From a virus (lineage: Duplodnaviria; Heunggongvirae; Uroviricota; Caudoviricetes), in the IMG/VR virus record IMGVR_UViG_2778261428_000002: a stretch of 31,495 bases of DNA; one strand, 5' to 3'. A program made the position numbers and the translations under genes. Below the pieces are notes generated by a model. It was not told the origin of the DNA and made no database searches. It saw only the letters and a list, made by a program, of their open reading frames with translations. Positions 5,492 to 26,725 of the stretch are shown one piece after another; positions within the stretch are counted from its first letter, which is position 1, and every line of letters starts with the position of its first letter.

Positions 5492-6580
5492 ATGGCAAAT
5501 GTCGGCTTTTCTTTTGAGGGGGTGATGATTGAAAGAATTATTGCTCATCGAATCTTCCCAAGGTCTCCCGATAAGCAAATGGTTCCACCTAAGTTAAGTA
5601 ATCAGTTAATAACGTTAGAACAAGATGCTTTGGATGCACTACAGGTTCGTATAACAGAAGCCTTAGGTAATAAATCTCATGGCATTGAAATGTCTATCAC
5701 TGATACCGGTGATGATAGTTTTTTTGCACTGACAACGTCTGTACTACATGTTGAAGGCGAATCATTTATTAACGTATCTAAGCGATTGGCGCATAAGTTA
5801 ACAGAAGCTCAATATAGTGCGGGGAAGGTTTCCGGTGGTGTGTTAGTAATCATTACGGGAAAAATTGGTGAACAAGCCTGCCCATTCTTTGCTGTACTGC
5901 GTGCTGAAATGCAAAACGGATTTCGGACCAATGATACCCCAGAGAAAATAGCGATGGAGTATATTGCTGACTTATTACTTACACCAACTCAGCGGCTTTA
6001 TAAAATAGGAGTGTTGATTGAGTGTGAGTCAGGCCATGAATTGATTGATGGTCGTTGTGATACGCAATATTATCGTTCATTTTTATTTGATCACTTGATG
6101 ACATCGACGGAAACTAAAAATGCTGCGGGGTATTTTTACAGTGTTTTTCTTGGAATGGGGATCGAAAAATCCTCCAAGAAATTGACGCAGGATTTTTTTG
6201 AACATACTCGAAATTTCATTAATCAGGCTCCAGTTGATGAAGAAACTAAGTTTGATTTACACGAGTCATTACGTTCTGAACTGAGAAGTCAGAAAGCAAC
6301 TTTGAGTACCGCTTCGTTTGCTACGGAACATCTTCCTCAAGAATTACAGACGAGCTATCAGTCATTTATGGCTCAAAAAGGTTTTCCGCAGAATGCAGTG
6401 TCTAAAGATACTGATTATATTAAGAAAAAGCTTCGTCGTAGAAGTAAATTAGTGTTTACAAGCGATGTATGGATATCCATACCACCAGATCAAGTAAAAG
6501 AACTGGTACAGATTGAACAAACAGATGATGATGAGTCAACTACACTTAAAGTCAAAGGGCGGTTGAAAAGTCAAGAATGA
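5492..6580 (+). CDS. Hypothetical 362-aa protein, partner of the RSH-domain protein; function unknown
   Basis: AGGGAG RBS 8 nt upstream. AT-rich relative to the phage backbone. Stop overlaps the next start (ATGA). No catalytic motif recognised. A weak, memory-based resemblance to NA37/YejK nucleoid-associated proteins is unverified. Confidence 0.7.
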   Translation: MANVGFSFEGVMIERIIAHRIFPRSPDKQMVPPKLSNQLITLEQDALDALQVRITEALGNKSHGIEMSITDTGDDSFFALTTSVLHVEGESFINVSKRLAHKLTEAQYSAGKVSGGVLVIITGKIGEQACPFFAVLRAEMQNGFRTNDTPEKIAMEYIADLLLTPTQRLYKIGVLIECESGHELIDGRCDTQYYRSFLFDHLMTSTETKNAAGYFYSVFLGMGIEKSSKKLTQDFFEHTRNFINQAPVDEETKFDLHESLRSELRSQKATLSTASFATEHLPQELQTSYQSFMAQKGFPQNAVSKDTDYIKKKLRRRSKLVFTSDVWISIPPDQVKELVQIEQTDDDESTTLKVKGRLKSQE

Positions 6581-7578
6581 TGAGTATAGAGGATTTTAGA
6601 CGTTATCTGGTTGAAAACCATGCTGCTTATGAAGCATGGGGTAAACATATTGCGTCTGAAATCAATGCGGCTTTGATTGAACAACTTGGTGAAGGGGCCG
6701 CCCAGCTCTTCATCAAGGTACCACCCACTCCGAGAGTTAAAGGTATCGAGTCCGCATTAGGGAAGGTTGGTCGTAAAGGTTATAACAACCCTGTTCAGCA
6801 GATGACGGATCTCGTTGGCGTTCGTTTTGTCGTTTTACTTTCTGAAGATATTGAGACAATCTGTAAAATCATTCAGAATAATGAACAATGGATAGCTGTT
6901 GTTTCTAAAGATTATCAGGATGAAATAGAGGTAAACCCTAAACTATTTGATTATCAATCAAAGCATTTTGAAATAAGGCCAAAGATAAATAGCGTTATAT
7001 CGGGAGTTAATATTACAACTGATATGTGCTGTGAAGTACAAATTAGAACATTATTGCAGCATGCGTATGCAGAATTAGTTCATGATAGCGTTTATAAACC
7101 TGTTGGCCCAGTACCGAAAAAAGCGGAGCGCCAAATTGCGCGTAGTATGGCTTTGATGGAAACAACAGATGAATTATTTTGTAATACAATGCGGCTTTTA
7201 TGTGATACTAATAAACCAAGAAATGATTTTTTAAAGGAGTTAAAAGATTTTTATATAAATAAAATTGGGAGACAGTATTTAAATCAGGAAGATAAAATAA
7301 ATTATTGTTTTTTAGATGAGTATAGGTCGTTTATACAAGAAGATCTTTTGACTAATCTAATCGACCTTCTTGATAAGAAAAAATATATATCATATAAAAT
7401 CCAACAAAGGGCTACTGCCAATCTTTTTTTTGCGCAGCCAGTGGTCATTTTTACTTACTGGCTGGCAATAAATGAAGACAGTAATAAATTACAGCAAGAA
7501 TGGCCGTTACCTGGATATTTGAACGAATTGAGAATGATTTTAAGTGATGTTGGTGTAAGTAGCGGTATTGGATATTAA
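6577..7578 (+). CDS. RelA/SpoT-homologue (RSH) nucleotidyltransferase-domain protein, small alarmone synthetase / toxSAS-like
   Basis: 333 aa. Synthetase motifs in order: PRVKGIESALGKVGRKG, MTDLVGVRFVV (DxxGxR), DYQ...FDYQSKHFEI, CCEVQIRTLLQHAYAELVH (ExQxRT...H.aE). C-terminal ~140 aa is Lys-rich and very AT-rich. Stop converges on gene D with a 4-bp overlap. Confidence 0.75.
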   Translation: MMSIEDFRRYLVENHAAYEAWGKHIASEINAALIEQLGEGAAQLFIKVPPTPRVKGIESALGKVGRKGYNNPVQQMTDLVGVRFVVLLSEDIETICKIIQNNEQWIAVVSKDYQDEIEVNPKLFDYQSKHFEIRPKINSVISGVNITTDMCCEVQIRTLLQHAYAELVHDSVYKPVGPVPKKAERQIARSMALMETTDELFCNTMRLLCDTNKPRNDFLKELKDFYINKIGRQYLNQEDKINYCFLDEYRSFIQEDLLTNLIDLLDKKKYISYKIQQRATANLFFAQPVVIFTYWLAINEDSNKLQQEWPLPGYLNELRMILSDVGVSSGIGY

Positions 7579-8681
7579 TCTTCCAGCCCCAACTCACACT
7601 CCACCGCCGTCCCATACCCACTGCTGTTATCCAACGTATGCACGCACCGCGTAATCACCCACGCGGTGCCGTCAATCTCCGCCTTAAACCCCTTCACCTG
7701 CACCGACAGTTCCGGGAACAAATCGGGCCGTCCGCGCGCAAGATTCAGGCTGAACGTTGCCGCGCCTCGCTGTAATAGCTCCCACGCGCTTTTTGCCGCT
7801 CTGTAGGCGTTATTTTTGTTGGCATAGGTGTGGCGCAGCACCTTGATATTTCCCTCTTCGCCGACCATCACGTTATCGGCGTTGAATGAGGTGTCTGACG
7901 TCGGCGATTCTGTTGGTTGCGTTTGCGGAAGATTTTTCCGTGTCTTGCGCTTCACGTCAGTTGACTGCTTTTTAGCCTGCCGCGTATCCAGCCAGTAGGC
8001 CGTTACGCCGGTATAGGCTTCCCTGTCCGCGATGCTGAACCGGTGGCTGTCGCCGTCCTCGCGGTTAATGGTTGCGACCGGCAGCGGCTTGCCGCTGGCG
8101 CTTTTACCGGAACCTGTCGGCATCAGCAGCAGAGCATCATTTTTCACGCAGGCGATAGCGCCGTGCATTTGCGCCAGCCGGGTTAGGAAGGACGCATCAG
8201 ACTCGTTAGTCTGGTCAACGTGCTCAATGGCGATCCCAGCCAGCTCGCCGCTGACGGTTGATTCCAGCTTATGACGTGCCGCCACGGTTTGCACAATCGC
8301 GCCCAGCGTCACATCATGGTAGCTCTGTTCCCGTTTAACGTTCAGCGAATCGCGGAAATCGGCGCTGCGGGCGCGGAGACTGAGTACGTCCGGTGCGCCG
8401 CTGTGCTCCAGTTCGTCCACGGTGAAGACATTCTGGTGCATCACGCCGTCACCCTTCCAGCCCAGAGAAACCGTTATTTTTTCGCCCTTTGCCGGAAACG
8501 CCAGCAGGCCGTCGCTGTCGTCCAGTTCGAGCTGCAGTTCGTCGGCCTCAAAGCCCCGGTTGTCGGTGATACGCAGGCTGATTAAGCGGTTGTCCAGATT
8601 CCGCGTAATGTCCTTACCGTTCAGCACCACGCTGTACTCCGGCTGCGGCTGGGCGTTTAAGAGTGCGTTTAACATCGTCAT
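7575..8681 (-). CDS. D: Tail protein D (P2 gpD-like)
   Basis: 368 aa in the conserved position after U. Start overlaps the U stop (ATGA). Confidence 0.85.
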   Translation of the reverse strand: MTMLNALLNAQPQPEYSVVLNGKDITRNLDNRLISLRITDNRGFEADELQLELDDSDGLLAFPAKGEKITVSLGWKGDGVMHQNVFTVDELEHSGAPDVLSLRARSADFRDSLNVKREQSYHDVTLGAIVQTVAARHKLESTVSGELAGIAIEHVDQTNESDASFLTRLAQMHGAIACVKNDALLLMPTGSGKSASGKPLPVATINREDGDSHRFSIADREAYTGVTAYWLDTRQAKKQSTDVKRKTRKNLPQTQPTESPTSDTSFNADNVMVGEEGNIKVLRHTYANKNNAYRAAKSAWELLQRGAATFSLNLARGRPDLFPELSVQVKGFKAEIDGTAWVITRCVHTLDNSSGYGTAVECELGLED

Positions 8682-20165: not shown

Positions 20166-20621
20166 TTAAATCCAGTGGATTTCGGTAACTTCAGGGTTCG
20201 CACAGCCTGTTTTAAGAGACACAAAAACGGCATATTTATAACCCAATTGTTCTTTAAACGCCTGCAGCTTGAGGAGGTCTTTTTCTCTGCCATTTCTTTG
20301 GTTGTTGGTCGATTTTTTCAGTTCGAACGCAATCAGGTTTTCATCGGTTCCTCGGTGGTGAACGATAATATCCGGGATAACATCACGTTCGCTTGCATTT
20401 CCGTTAGGTTCAACTGCGTAAATTAATCTTTTAACTGCATCCCCATTTCTATTGTATTCACAGTCTACATCCCATTCCGGGAAGTTATTTTCCAGATATC
20501 TACCCAAGCGGTTGGCGATAGCCCGTTCACTATTATCTGTAATCAGCAAATGAGCATCGTTACGCAAAAGTTCATTGATAGCGGCTCGCGTTGATTCTTC
20601 AACAGTATGTTGATTAGGCAT
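20166..20621 (-). CDS. Moron: hypothetical 151-aa protein with possible PD-(D/E)xK nuclease-like motif
   Basis: AT-rich ORF between S and V (P2 orf30 position). AAGGA RBS. Residues VIPDIIVHH...IAFELKK give a D-x19-ExK pattern. Confidence 0.65.
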   Translation of the reverse strand: MPNQHTVEESTRAAINELLRNDAHLLITDNSERAIANRLGRYLENNFPEWDVDCEYNRNGDAVKRLIYAVEPNGNASERDVIPDIIVHHRGTDENLIAFELKKSTNNQRNGREKDLLKLQAFKEQLGYKYAVFVSLKTGCANPEVTEIHWI

Positions 20622-22992: not shown

Positions 22993-23378
22993 TTGCGTCC
23001 CCTTAAAAAGTCGAGCAATTGACCGGGGTTATCCAGTTGTCGGATGGCCCATAGCAGCGCCTTGACGGTCAGCGCCGATGAGAGCAGCGCCCCGATACCA
23101 GGGGAGACTTTTTCCATCAGATGCTGCGGCAGATATCCGGCGACCAGCGCGGTGAACAGGTCGGCGGTCAGCAGGCCGATCACAAACGCCACGCAGAAGA
23201 AAATGATGCGCAGGAACAGGCCGATCTCTTTTTGCGAAATCACCAGCAGCAGCGCGCCACACAATGCGCCTAGCACTACCGGAGCCTGTAGCGTCGGGAA
23301 CAGCGTGGCAATGGAGAATGCGCTTACGGAAGCGGCAACGACGGTGCCGGTTACGGGTTCGTTCATAGTCAGTCCCAC
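22989..23378 (-). CDS. Holin (gpY-like)
   Basis: 129 aa hydrophobic membrane protein immediately downstream of X. Confidence 0.65.
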   Translation of the reverse strand: MGLTMNEPVTGTVVAASVSAFSIATLFPTLQAPVVLGALCGALLLVISQKEIGLFLRIIFFCVAFVIGLLTADLFTALVAGYLPQHLMEKVSPGIGALLSSALTVKALLWAIRQLDNPGQLLDFLRGRK

Positions 23379-23572
23379 AGGTTGATTCGTTGACGCGTGG
23401 CGGCGGAAGCCTGTTCAGGTACGTTCACCGCCGTACCGTGCGGCAGGCGCAGCGGCAGTTCGCACAGGCGCGGGTTGTCGCGGTAAAGCCGTTCGACAAT
23501 CCCGGCAGTGCGCCCGAAGGTGCGCCAGCAGATCTGGTCGAGCGTTTCGTTTTGCAGGCTATAGACGATCAT
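23369..23572 (-). CDS. X: Tail protein X (gpX-like)
   Basis: Start moved to ATG MIVYSLQNETLDQICWRTFG, giving 67 aa. Resembles P2 gpX as I recall it. Confidence 0.8.
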   Translation of the reverse strand: MIVYSLQNETLDQICWRTFGRTAGIVERLYRDNPRLCELPLRLPHGTAVNVPEQASAATRQRINLWD

Positions 23573-23644
23573 GGCGTTTCCCACGCGGCGTCAGGTGATG
23601 CGGGGATGGTGGCACAGGGGCGGGAAGTGAAGGGAAGGCTTCCG

Positions 23645-23667
23645 CTTGTAACTGAGGGCAGTACAAG
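23645..23667 (-). promoter_or_regulatory. Late-promoter dyad CTTGTAA-N10-TACAAG upstream of X
   Basis: 23-bp inverted repeat, centre about 84 nt upstream of the X start, just downstream of the island's small minus-strand genes. Confidence 0.6.
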
Positions 23668-23685
23668 CGGGAGCGATTGGCGGGG

Positions 23686-24006
23686 TTATGCCTCGCCGGT
23701 GTCGGTGTTGATGATTTGCCGTTCTGCGGACTTCTGGATTTGGATCAGCGCCGGGATCAGCAGTGCACTGGCTAGCAGGCCGTGTCCTAACTGGCACAGG
23801 CTTTCCGGTGAGAACTCCAATACGTTGCTGTCGGCGAAGGATACGAAGGTTTTACCCAGAAAGTGCAGGCCGTGGCACAATCCGGCGCAGCACTCCTCGC
23901 TGCTGTTGGCCAGTTGCAGGGTGTCGTCTGCGTTGAGATTCGAAATATCCAGCTTGCGGATCACATCGGCCAGTTCGGAAGAAAGCAGGTTGGTTTCAGG
24001 CACCAT
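23686..24006 (-). CDS. Hypothetical 106-aa protein, second gene of a coupled pair
   Basis: ATG at 24006 with GGAGGTG RBS. Start overlaps the upstream gene's stop by 11 nt. Contains a Cys-rich stretch (EECCAGLCHGLH). Confidence 0.5.
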   Translation of the reverse strand: MVPETNLLSSELADVIRKLDISNLNADDTLQLANSSEECCAGLCHGLHFLGKTFVSFADSNVLEFSPESLCQLGHGLLASALLIPALIQIQKSAERQIINTDTGEA

Positions 24007-24202
24007 GGCGCACCTCCAGCGGCTTGCAGGAGACAAATACCAGCGGGAAACCCGCCAGCAGGTCGCGAGCCTCGATCTCTGTTGTTGCCAGTACGGACAC
24101 CAGACGCAATGGCTGGATCTCGCGCAGCAGGCGGTTGGAACGGGCGTTCAGGAAGGTGTAGAGCTTTGAATGTGCGCGTATGTTACTATTAGCGGTAGCC
24201 AT
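23996..24202 (-). CDS. Hypothetical 68-aa protein, first gene of a coupled pair
   Basis: ATG at 24202 with GAGG RBS. Divergent from the RHH/Doc operon. Confidence 0.5.
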   Translation of the reverse strand: MATANSNIRAHSKLYTFLNARSNRLLREIQPLRLVSVLATTEIEARDLLAGFPLVFVSCKPLEVRHGA

Positions 24203-24273
24203 AGCATTAGCCTCAATAATGTTGTGGTCAGAGGCCCGTTGGTGTTGGTAGCACCTGCGGGCTTCGTTGTTTT

Positions 24274-24293
24274 TGTATGACTGTTGTCATACA
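24274..24293. promoter_or_regulatory. Perfect 8-bp inverted repeat (TGTATGAC-tgtt-GTCATACA), candidate operator in a divergent promoter region
   Basis: Lies in the 134-bp gap between the 68-aa gene and the RHH gene. Followed by a possible sigma70 promoter TTGCTT-17-TATAGC. Confidence 0.5.
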
Positions 24294-24336
24294 CTTGCTT
24301 TACTAACTGTAGGAAAATATAGCAGGAGTATAGCAA

Positions 24337-24516
24337 GTGTCAACCATTTCTATTCAAGGCAAAGGCAGTAAGCAAATCGCGTTACGAGTAGATCCTGCTC
24401 TTGAGGCCGGAATTCAGCAGGCACTTAAAGCTGATGGTGATGCCTCTGTTTCCGCGTGGATTAAGCGAATTATCAGGAAAGAGCTTCAGTCACGAGGCAT
24501 TGAAACAAAAGATTAG
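24337..24516 (+). CDS. Ribbon-helix-helix (Arc/CopG-like) DNA-binding protein, GTG start
   Basis: 59 aa, not in the ORF track because it starts with GTG. AGGAG RBS 7 nt upstream. KQIALRVDPALEAGIQQALKADG...WIKRIIRKEL fits a strand-helix-helix pattern. Confidence 0.6.
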   Translation: MSTISIQGKGSKQIALRVDPALEAGIQQALKADGDASVSAWIKRIIRKELQSRGIETKD

Positions 24517-24562
24517 CAGATAGGTATATACTTTTAATAAAGAGTATTAGAGGTAAAAAATA

Positions 24563-24751
24563 ATGGCGAAGAATAGCAGTCCTGCCAGCCGATACGGTAT
24601 CAAGGTCGTAAAAAGAGACAGTATGAGTGGGCAGTTCGTACCCGTCGAAATGAAACTGGACGGCCCGGAAGGTGAGCGTGTGATTAAAAAGTCGGCAGAA
24701 CGTATTTATGCCAGACACAACAAAGTCATTAAGGCGCTGGCTAACCGATGA
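24563..24751 (+). CDS. Putative antitoxin partner of Doc (family not recognised)
   Basis: 62 aa with GAGGT RBS. Stop overlaps the doc start (ATGA). Confidence 0.55.
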   Translation: MAKNSSPASRYGIKVVKRDSMSGQFVPVEMKLDGPEGERVIKKSAERIYARHNKVIKALANR

Positions 24752-25125
24752 TTGATGCACATTTGGTGATTGGAATTCACGATTTTATTCTTGCTCATGA
24801 GCCGGGATTGGTTGGTTATCAGGATGCTGGCCGGGTCGAGGCAACACTGGCGCGGGTGGATAACCGTATTCTGTATGAGCAGATGAATGATATTTTCCAG
24901 ATCGCCGCATCTTATGCGGTTGCCATCGCCAGAGGGCACGTTTTTGCTGATGCCAACAAGCGAACGGCACTGGTGACGGCGTTGACATACCTTGATATGC
25001 AGGGTGTGAACCTCAAGCGAACACAAAAGCTGGAAGATATTATGGTGGATGTGGCTGAGGGAACGCTGAATCTGGATGATTTAGCCGATATTTTCTATAC
25101 CCTTAGTGATGTAAATGCTTCCTGA
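24748..25125 (+). CDS. doc: Doc (death-on-curing) / Fic-family toxin
   Basis: 125 aa. Fic/Doc active-site motif HVFADANKRT (HxFx(D/N)(A/G)NKR). Confidence 0.85.
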   Translation: MIDAHLVIGIHDFILAHEPGLVGYQDAGRVEATLARVDNRILYEQMNDIFQIAASYAVAIARGHVFADANKRTALVTALTYLDMQGVNLKRTQKLEDIMVDVAEGTLNLDDLADIFYTLSDVNAS

Positions 25126-25157: not shown

Positions 25158-25394
25158 TTATGCCGCCTCAATACCCGCGCTGGTTAACATATAGTGGCCC
25201 CAGTGGGTTTTCTTCAGGTAACCGGCCAGTTCCATCTGCGTCACAATAAATTCAGCGTTAACCATTTCTATACCTGCGTAGTCGGCCAGATCGCTCAGCG
25301 GCCATGTGCTGCGAACGCCGACGCTAACTATGGTGTCTCTGATGCGGCGGGCGGTATCGGTCATTGGGCGGGTTCTGGCGGCCTGAATAGTCAT
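25158..25394 (-). CDS. Small hypothetical protein, possible winged-helix DNA-binding protein
   Basis: ORF track start (25433) is a GTG. I prefer the internal ATG (MTIQAAR) with AGGGGA RBS, giving about 78 aa. Fold call is a guess. Confidence 0.5.
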   Translation of the reverse strand: MTIQAARTRPMTDTARRIRDTIVSVGVRSTWPLSDLADYAGIEMVNAEFIVTQMELAGYLKKTHWGHYMLTSAGIEAA

Positions 25395-25509
25395 GGTATT
25401 TTCCCCTGTAGGTTCTTTCGTTGGGTCAGACACTAACTCTGGTGGGGAAGGGGCATCCAGCGTTCAGATGAGGCGATACGGTGATGCGCATCGCATATCC
25501 GTACTCTTT

Positions 25510-25977
25510 TTATACCAGAACAAACGTACTGCGCGGCTTGCCCAGAATATCCCGCACGGCGAAGCGGGCATCGCGCGCCAGATCGTCAGCGATGCTTTCC
25601 TTCTGTTCCGCCAGTTTGCTGCCGTGGGTGGTGGCATCAAAGTTACGATAGTGTTCCAACAGGTTCGCGTGCGTCAGGCTGTACACCGCGCGGCGGTAGC
25701 GGTGCTGGTTAACGCTTTCGCCGTCCAGCCGTTCGGTCGTGGTTTCCGCAATGTAAGTTGTGCCACGGTTTTCCTGTTCCAGCCGCCATTCCCGCAGGTC
25801 GTCGTTTACGCTGGCCAGCGCAATCAGCAGTGCCTCGCGCAGACGTTCGTTGGTAATGGTGCTGTCCAGCCGTTGGGTTGCACGCAGATGTTGCGTATCA
25901 ATATCGGGAAAGAAAGGGTGGTTGCTGATAACCAACCCCGGCAGACTGGCGGCGGGGGCAACCTGAATAAAGCTCAT
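25510..25977 (-). CDS. L: Head completion/stabilisation protein L (gpL-like)
   Basis: Start moved to ATG MSFIQVAPAASLPG (GGGAGA RBS). Conserved order after M. Confidence 0.8.
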   Translation of the reverse strand: MSFIQVAPAASLPGLVISNHPFFPDIDTQHLRATQRLDSTITNERLREALLIALASVNDDLREWRLEQENRGTTYIAETTTERLDGESVNQHRYRRAVYSLTHANLLEHYRNFDATTHGSKLAEQKESIADDLARDARFAVRDILGKPRSTFVLV

Positions 25978-26062
25978 TATATTCTCCCTGTTCGGCGGTG
26001 GACGGCGGGCGTTGCAGTGGTATAACCACGCGCGGCCAGCCGTGCCGCCGGTCGTGAGGGTC

Positions 26063-26725
26063 TCACTCTGTGGACTGGTCGGGCGGGTTATTGCGAATTT
26101 GCCGCTCCAGTTGCTCAATCAGCTTTTTCACGCCGACGTTCTCATCCAGTTGTAGTGCGCGCAGGAACTGCGCCAGCGCCTCCTGCGGCTGGCTTTCGCT
26201 TTGTGCCAGCCCCAATGCCTTGTGCAGGCGAGCGCGAACCTGATCCGGCATGTCCTGATCGGCTAACAGCCCGGCAAAGGCCAGCAGGCTGTCCAGCGCC
26301 GCAAAGGTACCGGCGGTAAGCTGTTTCAGGGCGGTGTCGGCGACTTCTTCAGCCACCATGCAGGCGGTCTGCCGCTGGTACTGATCCGGCGTTACCCAGC
26401 CGTGTTTCAGGGCGTGTTCCGCCATGGGGTAGGCAGCGGGAAAGTCGCCGGTATCCAGCGTCCAGAGCAGCACCGTCATAAACACATCGTCCTGCTGTTG
26501 GCTGTCGGCAGCCAGAACGCCGCTTACCCACGGCTGGTAATCGGGCAGCAGTTCACCCTTAACCTCGATTTTGCGTTCAATGGACTGGATCGCTTTCAAG
26601 CGGCGTTTATCGGTTGCCAGCTTTGCCAGCATTAGTTCATAGCCGTTGGCGTAGGTCTGGTTTTCCTGTTGATTTGCGGCCTGCGCCTGATGGCGCAGCA
26701 GGTGGCGGCGGGCAGGCGTCATCAT
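26063..26725 (-). CDS. M: Terminase small (endonuclease) subunit M (gpM-like)
   Basis: 220 aa. Resembles P2 gpM as I recall it (DDVFMTVLLWTLDTGDF, ENVGVKKLIEQLERQ). Confidence 0.85.
   Translation of the reverse strand: MMTPARRHLLRHQAQAANQQENQTYANGYELMLAKLATDKRRLKAIQSIERKIEVKGELLPDYQPWVSGVLAADSQQQDDVFMTVLLWTLDTGDFPAAYPMAEHALKHGWVTPDQYQRQTACMVAEEVADTALKQLTAGTFAALDSLLAFAGLLADQDMPDQVRARLHKALGLAQSESQPQEALAQFLRALQLDENVGVKKLIEQLERQIRNNPPDQSTE

Follow-up and report, generated by a model that had tools for sequence, protein, structure and literature searches.

In phage P1, the c4 RNA of the immI region blocks the start of icd and hence the coupled, overlapping gene ant, and in phage P22 the ribbon-helix-helix (RHH) repressor Mnt is encoded divergently from an antisense-controlled ant gene. 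In the hok/mok/sok system of plasmid R1, the antisense RNA targets the start of an upstream overlapping frame, and translation of the effector depends on this frame. A further system of this kind is SymE/SymR, which has so far been seen as a peculiar type I system of the chromosome that stands by itself. The symR promoter is situated inside the symE open reading frame (ORF) (Kawano 2007, PMC1891008). SymE is repressed by LexA, SymR and Lon, with SymR blocking translation, and a mutation of the symR promoter raised SymE sevenfold (PMC1891008; PMC4147584). Finally, an Icd-like protein encoded in a P4-like satellite locus is a likely cell-death effector (Silas et al.). The locus described here lies in a stretch of 31,495 nucleotides (nt) from a tailed virus (Caudoviricetes; IMG/VR record IMGVR_UViG_2778261428_000002), which as a whole is referred to as the window and which contains a P2-like prophage. 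An earlier note, made from the sequence alone, had drawn attention to two small minus-strand genes of 68 and 106 amino acids (aa), termed ORF1 and ORF2. The present analysis suggests that this pair is probably carried as cargo by a portable expression cassette with two locks, in which a SymR-type lock and a repressor act on coupled, putatively toxic effectors; as a whole it would most likely resemble an RNA-controlled toxin-antitoxin or phage-exclusion module. The main feature of the cassette, missed in the note, appears to be an antisense RNA, which is likely its antitoxin or regulator.

For a 47-nt piece of the ORF1 leader (24221-24267), matches of about 92% identity exist in about 20 E. coli genomes; in the three E. 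coli genomes inspected, it adjoins Icd-like genes of P4-like satellites. At gathering thresholds, Rfam reports nothing in the whole window. A permissive scan of positions 23500-24600 yields a single meaningful match, to SymR (RF01809) on the + strand at 24197-24268, which covers the model in full length (1-77) with an E-value of 2.5e-4. In four further loci SymR is likewise the only Rfam match, with scores of 28.7-41.3 bits and again in full length. Folding of the + strand yields two hairpins with a U-run behind them (-39.3 kcal/mol, z -7.2), whereas its complement reaches -20.1 kcal/mol (z -1.9). In 29 out of 29 distinct homologues, the + strand is likewise the stabler of the two, with means of -35.4 versus -21.6 kcal/mol. 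Hairpin 1 forms on this strand only, and only here is a hairpin followed by a U-run.

A covariance model of our own (R1), built from ten sequences, detects the RNA, placed opposite the start site, in all related loci that were searched and have this region (55.8-97.7 bits) and matches the E. coli satellite at 47.8 bits. With filters switched off, R1 moreover recovers symR of E. coli K-12 at its exact annotated 5' end (2836-2920, annotated as 2836-2912; 31.6 bits, E 2e-7). In the R1 alignment 93.3% of the cells are paired, compared with 31-45% in controls with slid partners, and in nine pairs both partners change; five of these belong to the terminator stem, which consists of nine pairs. As the alignment was fitted to the structure, these counts lean toward structure; the slid controls and unfitted folding point in the same direction. 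The structure is strand-specific, since 124 G·U cells are set against 14 A·C cells, and pairing drops from 93.3% on the antisense strand to 79.4% on the mRNA strand. RNAalifold run on a MAFFT alignment missed hairpin 2, the arms of which were out of register, and the register was fixed by the covariance-model alignment.

An extended -10 promoter is predicted for the RNA within the coding sequence of ORF1 (Table 1). The pattern TGnTA(C/T)NAT, followed by 7 nt and an A at +1, is kept in 22 of 22 distinct upstream sequences, though the encoded residues vary (NSN, NGI, NGT, DSN, DCN). The predicted +1 is located 3 nt behind the start codon of ORF1. We regard it as very probable that the RNA exists and is under selection and, judged by the covariance-model matches, it is a diverged relative of SymR that scores below the Rfam threshold. 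C4 RNA, a candidate prompted by the Icd-like match, was rejected: the scan of 23500-24600 gave no match to RF01695 at E <= 10, and the strand analysis favours the opposite strand.

The two genes presumably under control of this RNA are, by all comparisons made, real genes, conserved and under purifying selection. E. coli GMF054 contains an identical locus, in which RefSeq annotates both as hypothetical proteins, and both have full-length PHROG matches of unknown function (ORF1, phrog_20855, 1.5e-45; ORF2, phrog_19484, 2.6e-53). Homologues reach down to 42% identity with conserved length, the ratio of nonsynonymous to synonymous substitution rates (dN/dS) is 0.05-0.32 for ORF1 and 0.09-0.33 for ORF2, and the overlap ATGnTGCCTGA is kept across loci of E. 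coli, Leminorella, Kosakonia, Yersinia and others. ORF1 and ORF2 thus represent more than chance reading frames. The description in the earlier note is borne out in this respect: positions, lengths and strand of the two genes and their 11-nt overlap all agree, and the ribosome-binding site claimed for each is present as a Shine-Dalgarno (SD) sequence. The conservation in relatives, whose absence was to speak against the pair, is found, and a single frameshifted gene can be dismissed because two separate ORFs with the same overlap recur in many genera. Translational coupling, also claimed there, is probable from the conserved overlap. In the program-made ORF list, ORF2 appears in a longer form starting at TTG 24036.

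Two observations concern the internal organization of the pair. Toward the 3' end of ORF1 and about 20 nt ahead of the SD of ORF2, the minus strand contains a GC-rich hairpin of 10 bp with a T-rich tract behind it (24038-24060). This terminator-like element, the fold of which is not significantly stabler than that of shuffled sequences, could attenuate transcription or modulate initiation at ORF2. Between the window and E. coli L725, the synonymous substitution rate (dS) of ORF1 (0.17) is about four times below that of ORF2 (0.74), which points to recombination at a junction of head and cargo or else to an additional constraint on ORF1 at the nucleotide level.

The second layer of control is suggested by the region upstream of the pair. 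The transcript of ORF1 and ORF2, starting from the predicted sigma-70 promoter, would carry a 5' leader of about 105 nt. The -35 pentamer TTGAC is invariant across loci, and no LexA box was seen by eye in this promoter. An operator-like inverted repeat and a separate palindrome are found here (Table 1), and in other lineages different inverted or direct repeats occupy the same place, as expected for lineage-specific pairs of repressor and operator. The presumed repressor is the product of a 59-aa gene, which matches NF041551 (YlcI/YnfO) with 20.4 bits (E 4e-4), below the cut-off of 30, and an Arc-like repressor of PHROG at 6e-4. The divergent promoter region described before is real, with a gap of 134 nt between the pair and the operon of this gene, a 62-aa gene and Doc. 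In most loci an RHH homologue is located divergently upstream of ORF2, in none of them with Doc nearby, and in 55 of 75 distinct contexts a YlcI-like gene begins 40-130 nt beyond the 3' end of the RNA. E. coli L725 has kept the pair and the RHH gene, with Doc replaced by other genes. The RHH gene had been regarded as a member of the Doc operon. As it travels with ORF1 and ORF2 into loci lacking Doc and is kept in L725, its distribution assigns it to the ORF1/ORF2 cassette and not primarily to Doc. The gene starts about 60 nt after the terminator of the antisense RNA on the same strand (24276-24337), and transcription reading through from the promoter of the predicted RNA might cover it.

Table 1. 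Position of the cassette elements and of flanking genes in the window.
Feature	Position	Strand	Description
SymR-like cis-antisense RNA (predicted)	24197..24276	+	about 76-80 nt; complementary to first codons, start codon, SD and 5' leader of ORF1
RNA hairpin 1	24198-24228	+	anti-SD CCUC in loop
RNA hairpin 2 (terminator)	24231-24265	+	followed by U-run to about 24276
Extended -10 promoter of the RNA (predicted)	24181..24189	+	TGTTACTAT; within ORF1 codons 5-7; 7-nt discriminator, +1 = A24197
ORF1	24202..23996	minus	ATG start, 68 aa; stop TGA (23998-23996) inside ORF2
SD of ORF1	24214-24211	minus	GAGG, 8 nt ahead of ATG
ORF2	24006..23686	minus	ATG start, 106 aa
SD of ORF2	24017-24013	minus	GGAGG, 6 nt ahead of ATG
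ORF1/ORF2 overlap	23996..24006	minus	ATGGTGCCTGA; 11 nt; ORF2 start codon within ORF1 end
Sigma-70 promoter of ORF1-ORF2 (predicted)	24316..24343	minus	TTGACA, 16 nt with TG, TATATT; 11 of 12 consensus positions
Operator-like inverted repeat	24291..24340		arms 24291-24304 and 24327-24340; 14 nt, 93% complementary; brackets the sense promoter
Separate palindrome	24274-24293		8 bp
YlcI/YnfO-like (Arc/RHH-like) gene, presumed cassette repressor	24337..24516	+	59 aa; heads the 62-aa gene/Doc operon here
62-aa gene and Doc toxin	24563..25125	+	PF02661 (Doc); context; variable cargo downstream of the RHH gene, outside the conserved cassette
gpX (tail protein X)	23369-23584		PF05489
gpL (head completion)	25510-26118		PF05926

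Judged from its occurrences, the module is not P2-specific. The link to a P2-type setting, as drawn at first, turned out to be too narrow, since the cassette is also found alone in chromosomes, in prophage hotspots rich in toxin-antitoxin (TA) genes and at the head of operons in P4-like satellites. The Leminorella copy consists of the three genes by themselves, with cysC on one side and housekeeping genes on the other. In Kosakonia they adjoin SIR2/ParA-like genes or a gene for a 1315-aa protein, and TacA/TacT. In Photorhabdus they are situated beside HigBA-like pairs and a P2-type tail cluster, and in Yersinia within a P2-type cluster between tail-fibre assembly and sheath genes, amid VapBC, MazEF, RelB/YafQ and HigBA. 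Serratia symbiotica harbors the cassette at the L-X site, as in the window, and Pectobacterium directly after an integrase. P2-type hotspots in Serratia, like those in Yersinia, place it amid VapBC, MazEF and HigBA.

Comparison of these loci reveals five variants. The complete form (variant a) consists of an ORF1 of 66-68 aa together with ORF2; both are found in E. coli, Salmonella, Yersinia, Leminorella and Photorhabdus. Variant b, found in Kosakonia, Enterobacter and Phytobacter, has ORF1 reduced to a 40-aa remnant without the Icd-like core and keeps the 11-nt overlap with ORF2. In Pectobacterium, Erwinia, Brenneria, Symbiopectobacterium and Serratia marcescens (variant c), ORF2 is fused directly to the ORF1 start site. 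Contigs of IMG/VR (variant d) contain a degenerate leader of 41-51 aa, which overlaps by 8 nt with a different protein of 119-136 aa, and in variant e a truncated ORF1 is followed by a HigB-like toxin. Throughout this comparison the start site controlled by the predicted RNA is always kept while the cargo varies. Two features support coupling: a leader ORF with unchanged overlap persists where the Icd-like core has been deleted, and ORF2 is in some loci fused to the controlled start site.

The cargo of variant d (loci L058, L068, L072, L077, L087, L089 and L091) displays an internal duplication with the motifs …YRAGLxxSLF…ECxxxLNNLIALAxxI…; it belongs to phrog_35285 and has no Pfam match. In an hhalign comparison of the 135-aa cargo with ORF2, a local likeness to LCQLGHGL was not significant. 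The Photorhabdus locus L046 contains two heads in tandem (6240-7420 and 7500-8348). In the upstream head, a truncated ORF1 precedes a HigB/HigA-like pair (Gp49/HTH_37) and hairpin 2 of the RNA is degenerate; the downstream head consists of ORF1 and ORF2.

At the protein level, neither gene had been assigned to a recognized family. For ORF1 this has to be modified: residues 28-57 match NF033153 of NCBIfam (family name 'host cell division inhibitor Icd-like protein') with 24.1 bits (cut-off 25, E 2.8e-5), and NCBI names several ORF1 homologues of 81-88% identity Icd-like. Toward the satellite Icd-like protein, identity is about 40% over 30 residues only. By these matches ORF1 is a borderline member at the edge of the Icd-like family. 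In addition, it would serve as a leader ORF coupled to ORF2. The AlphaFold2 model of ORF1 displays a small beta/alpha unit with a predicted local distance difference test score (pLDDT) of 74 and has no informative structural neighbour. For ORF2 the absence of a recognized family stands, as it is modeled as a three-helix protein (pLDDT 86) of an uncharacterized helical family with invariant GLCH and LCQLGH motifs. This family comprises 22 clusters and is rare, with 39 matches among 1.84 billion representatives. No match to ORF2 is found in Pfam, NCBIfam, PADLOC or sequences of the PDB, and PADLOC has none for the pair; ORF2 contains no Ant, KilA or Bro domain, and neither ORF1 nor ORF2 matches AbrB/SymE. 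A tblastn search with both proteins against INPHARED phages retrieved none. The Cys-rich stretch reported for ORF2 is present (C39, C40, C44), with C44 and C71 being the only family-invariant cysteines. ORF2 is the presumed effector or cargo.

The mechanism proposed for the cassette combines these elements. The RHH protein would repress the sense promoter via the inverted repeat. Transcripts that escape would be met by the antisense RNA, to which they are perfectly complementary, and pairing over the SD and AUG of ORF1 would block translation as SymR does for SymE. Because ORF2 initiates inside ORF1, the block would be carried on to ORF2, by the same logic as in hok/mok/sok and P1 c4/icd/ant. 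If the repressor or the RNA were lost or inactivated, for instance through infection by a phage, ORF2 and possibly also the Icd-like ORF1 would be freed as growth-inhibiting effectors. Such a release would yield addiction or superinfection exclusion, the least certain step. We infer the repressor, antisense-block and coupling steps from the anatomy of the locus and from homology to SymR. Repression of ORF1 and ORF2 by the RNA is quite probable. The view that the two proteins are toxic or exclusion effectors is tentative, with slightly less than even chances in our estimate; it draws on indirect evidence, namely the double repression, the genomic contexts and the Icd-like effector of Silas et al., and no toxin domain was found. 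More speculatively, the SymR-family 'regulatory head', composed of divergent RHH repressor, operators, cis-antisense RNA with its promoter in the first codons and leader ORF, could serve as a portable lock for interchangeable dangerous cargo in enterobacterial mobile elements, including SymE, Icd-like proteins, the ORF2 family, the duplicated helical protein and HigB. The chromosomal SymE/SymR would then be tied to the immunity regions of P4-like satellites, and ORF2 would represent a novel type I toxin that does not reside in the membrane, or an effector of phage exclusion. This generalization is possible, yet we consider it doubtful.

Several points weigh against the doubly locked cassette. 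The existence of the RNA, the position of its 5' end and its action are all predicted from sequence, and the SymR match in the window reaches 33.8 bits, far below the Rfam gathering threshold of 61. A YlcI-like gene is not detectable in 20 of the 75 contexts, and no convincing + strand sigma-70 promoter was found for the RHH gene. The local fold around the ORF2 SD is not stabler than that of shuffled sequences, so that coupling of ORF2 is argued solely from the overlap; an SD-sequestering hairpin is seen in some sequences. The Icd-like match of ORF1 lies just below the cut-off and spans only about 30 residues, and tblastn of INPHARED with the satellite Icd-like protein did not recover P1 Icd, the sole match being one induced prophage. 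Finally, ORF2 resembles no toxin, has no predicted membrane segment, retrieves nothing from PADLOC and has only generic helical fold matches.

Some of these points would fit other explanations of the locus. If no antisense RNA were made, conservation around the start site would reflect a structure of the sense 5' untranslated region together with coding constraints. The support for the RNA indeed consists of sequence and folding, the sense leader can form part of hairpin 2 and the covariance-model alignment was fitted to the proposed structure. However, G·U pairs are found almost only in the + strand reading, to which hairpin 1 and the U-run after a hairpin are likewise confined, the -10 element is kept across differing amino acids, and the match to the experimentally proven SymR is reciprocal with the same start position, which renders this explanation very improbable. 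A conventional type II TA pair, in which ORF1 and ORF2 neutralize each other and the operon regulates itself, is also unlikely. The genes are small, overlapping and co-transcribed, are found in TA-rich prophage hotspots and occur together in the hosts named for variant a. Nevertheless, ORF2 exists without ORF1 in at least five genera, variant b retains only the remnant, Icd-like genes are found with other partners, a DNA-binding or known toxin domain is absent from both proteins, and it is the RHH gene and the antisense RNA that are conserved as regulators. The TA-like role considered in the earlier note is reasonable in general terms, but ORF1 and ORF2 are unlikely to be toxin and antitoxin to each other, as ORF2 occurs without ORF1 and Icd-like genes occur without ORF2.

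The cassette could also be an immI-like lysis/lysogeny module, with ORF2 as an antirepressor or regulator of the prophage or satellite that is silenced by RNA and RHH protein in the lysogen. Its logic is that of P1, where an RNA blocks icd translation and ant is coupled, its architecture that of P22 with the divergent Mnt and antisense-controlled ant, and the same head precedes a replication operon in P4-like satellites of E. coli. These likenesses have to be set against the occurrence of the three-gene cassette alone amid housekeeping genes and in non-phage islands, its location at late-gene moron sites outside the immunity region, the lack of Ant, KilA and Bro domains in ORF2 and the negative result for RF01695 given above, and we consider such a module improbable. 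The pair might further be a moron serving anti-defence or host takeover, or what is left of a decaying early operon of a satellite, and would then be expressed in the lytic cycle only and be non-toxic to its own host; purifying selection, intact regulators and the chromosomal occurrences argue against both and leave them a small chance only. On balance, a repressor and an antisense RNA acting on coupled effectors remains the preferred explanation.

Within the prophage the pair is placed between the genes L and X, as stated in the earlier note and confirmed by the flanking families PF05489 and PF05926 (Table 1), and thus in a moron position; in P2 itself, X directly follows L. The 62-aa gene (24563-24751) lies directly upstream of Doc with a 4-nt overlap. 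Its only match is phrog_11529, of unknown function (2.2e-5); no Phd or other antitoxin family was matched, and the gene presumably encodes the Doc antitoxin. A conserved 91-aa ORF (25158-25433; 78 aa in RefSeq) is located between Doc and gpL, belongs to phrog_331 of unknown function, gives a weak winged-helix-like signal and is retained in E. coli L725 and Serratia symbiotica despite different adjacent cargo. A second variable slot (about 20166-20621) is found between gpS (virion morphogenesis) and baseplate V. Here it contains a 151-aa hypothetical protein, in E. coli L725 an 'abortive phage resistance protein' and in Serratia symbiotica HicA/HicB.

If the cassette works as proposed, the SymR RNA with its start site would be a widespread mobile control unit of P2-like hotspots, chromosomal islands and P4-like satellites. 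It would explain how Icd-like genes implicated in satellite-borne cell death may stay silent, and the ORF2 family would represent a new candidate toxin or exclusion factor. Annotation pipelines miss the RNA of the cassette because it scores below the Rfam threshold and is sometimes covered by over-extended coding calls. Literature searches on Icd-like proteins, YlcI/YnfO and SymR with Icd retrieved no description of this cassette. New would be a SymR-type antisense lock with new cargo, leader coupling and a dedicated RHH repressor, located on prophages, satellites and islands.

Among the known systems, the head of E. coli P4-like satellites has a similar layout. It consists of int, a helix-turn-helix gene and YlcI/YnfO, facing an operon of an Icd-like gene (67 aa), a 106-aa gene, DUF4222 and a DUF927 primase. 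As in the cassette, the annotated YlcI/YnfO gene is divergent, a SymR-like RNA is matched by R1, and the Icd-like first gene is overlapped by a 106-aa gene; in contrast, the cassette of the window stops after two genes and has neither DUF4222 nor a primase. The satellite 106-aa gene (L092, 2960-3280; phrog_15327), which overlaps the Icd-like gene by 8 nt, is a positional analogue of ORF2, and hhalign detected no relation between the two proteins (probability 0.1%). In E. coli A36 (L003, 2737-3114), PGAP calls the Icd-like gene with 125 aa, including an N-terminal extension over the SymR-like RNA and the leader; in two other strains (L092/L093, 3273-3476) the gene has 67 aa. The 'long N-terminal extension' of Silas et al. 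may be an annotation artefact that hides the RNA.

P1 immI shares with the cassette a small Icd-type ORF overlapped by the next gene and an RNA that acts, or here would act, at the start site to block the downstream gene. The C4 RNA of P1 is, however, processed and co-transcribed on the same strand, whereas a cis-antisense RNA is predicted here, and ORF2 is unrelated to Ant. To hok/mok/sok there is no likeness in sequence or structure and no fold-back mRNA processing is evident; moreover, Hok is a small membrane peptide and ORF2 a soluble-looking helical protein of 106 aa. SymE/SymR, on the other hand, has in common with the cassette, for which these features are predicted, a cis-antisense RNA of about 77 nt that starts 3 nt behind the start codon, from a promoter within the initial codons of the target ORF. 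In both, two stem-loops and a terminator are formed, SD and AUG are covered, and the covariance-model matches are reciprocal. The promoter geometry of K-12 symR (TAGAAT, 7 nt, A) is that of the cassette RNA, and the first seven codons are homologous (MTDTHSI in symE, MADTDSN in ORF2 of Pectobacterium). Both display a second layer of control, exerted by LexA on symE and assigned to the dedicated divergent RHH gene in the cassette. The cassette differs in its cargo, an Icd-like and a new helical protein instead of the AbrB-fold SymE, in the additional coupling step through a leader ORF and in its mobility on prophages and satellites.

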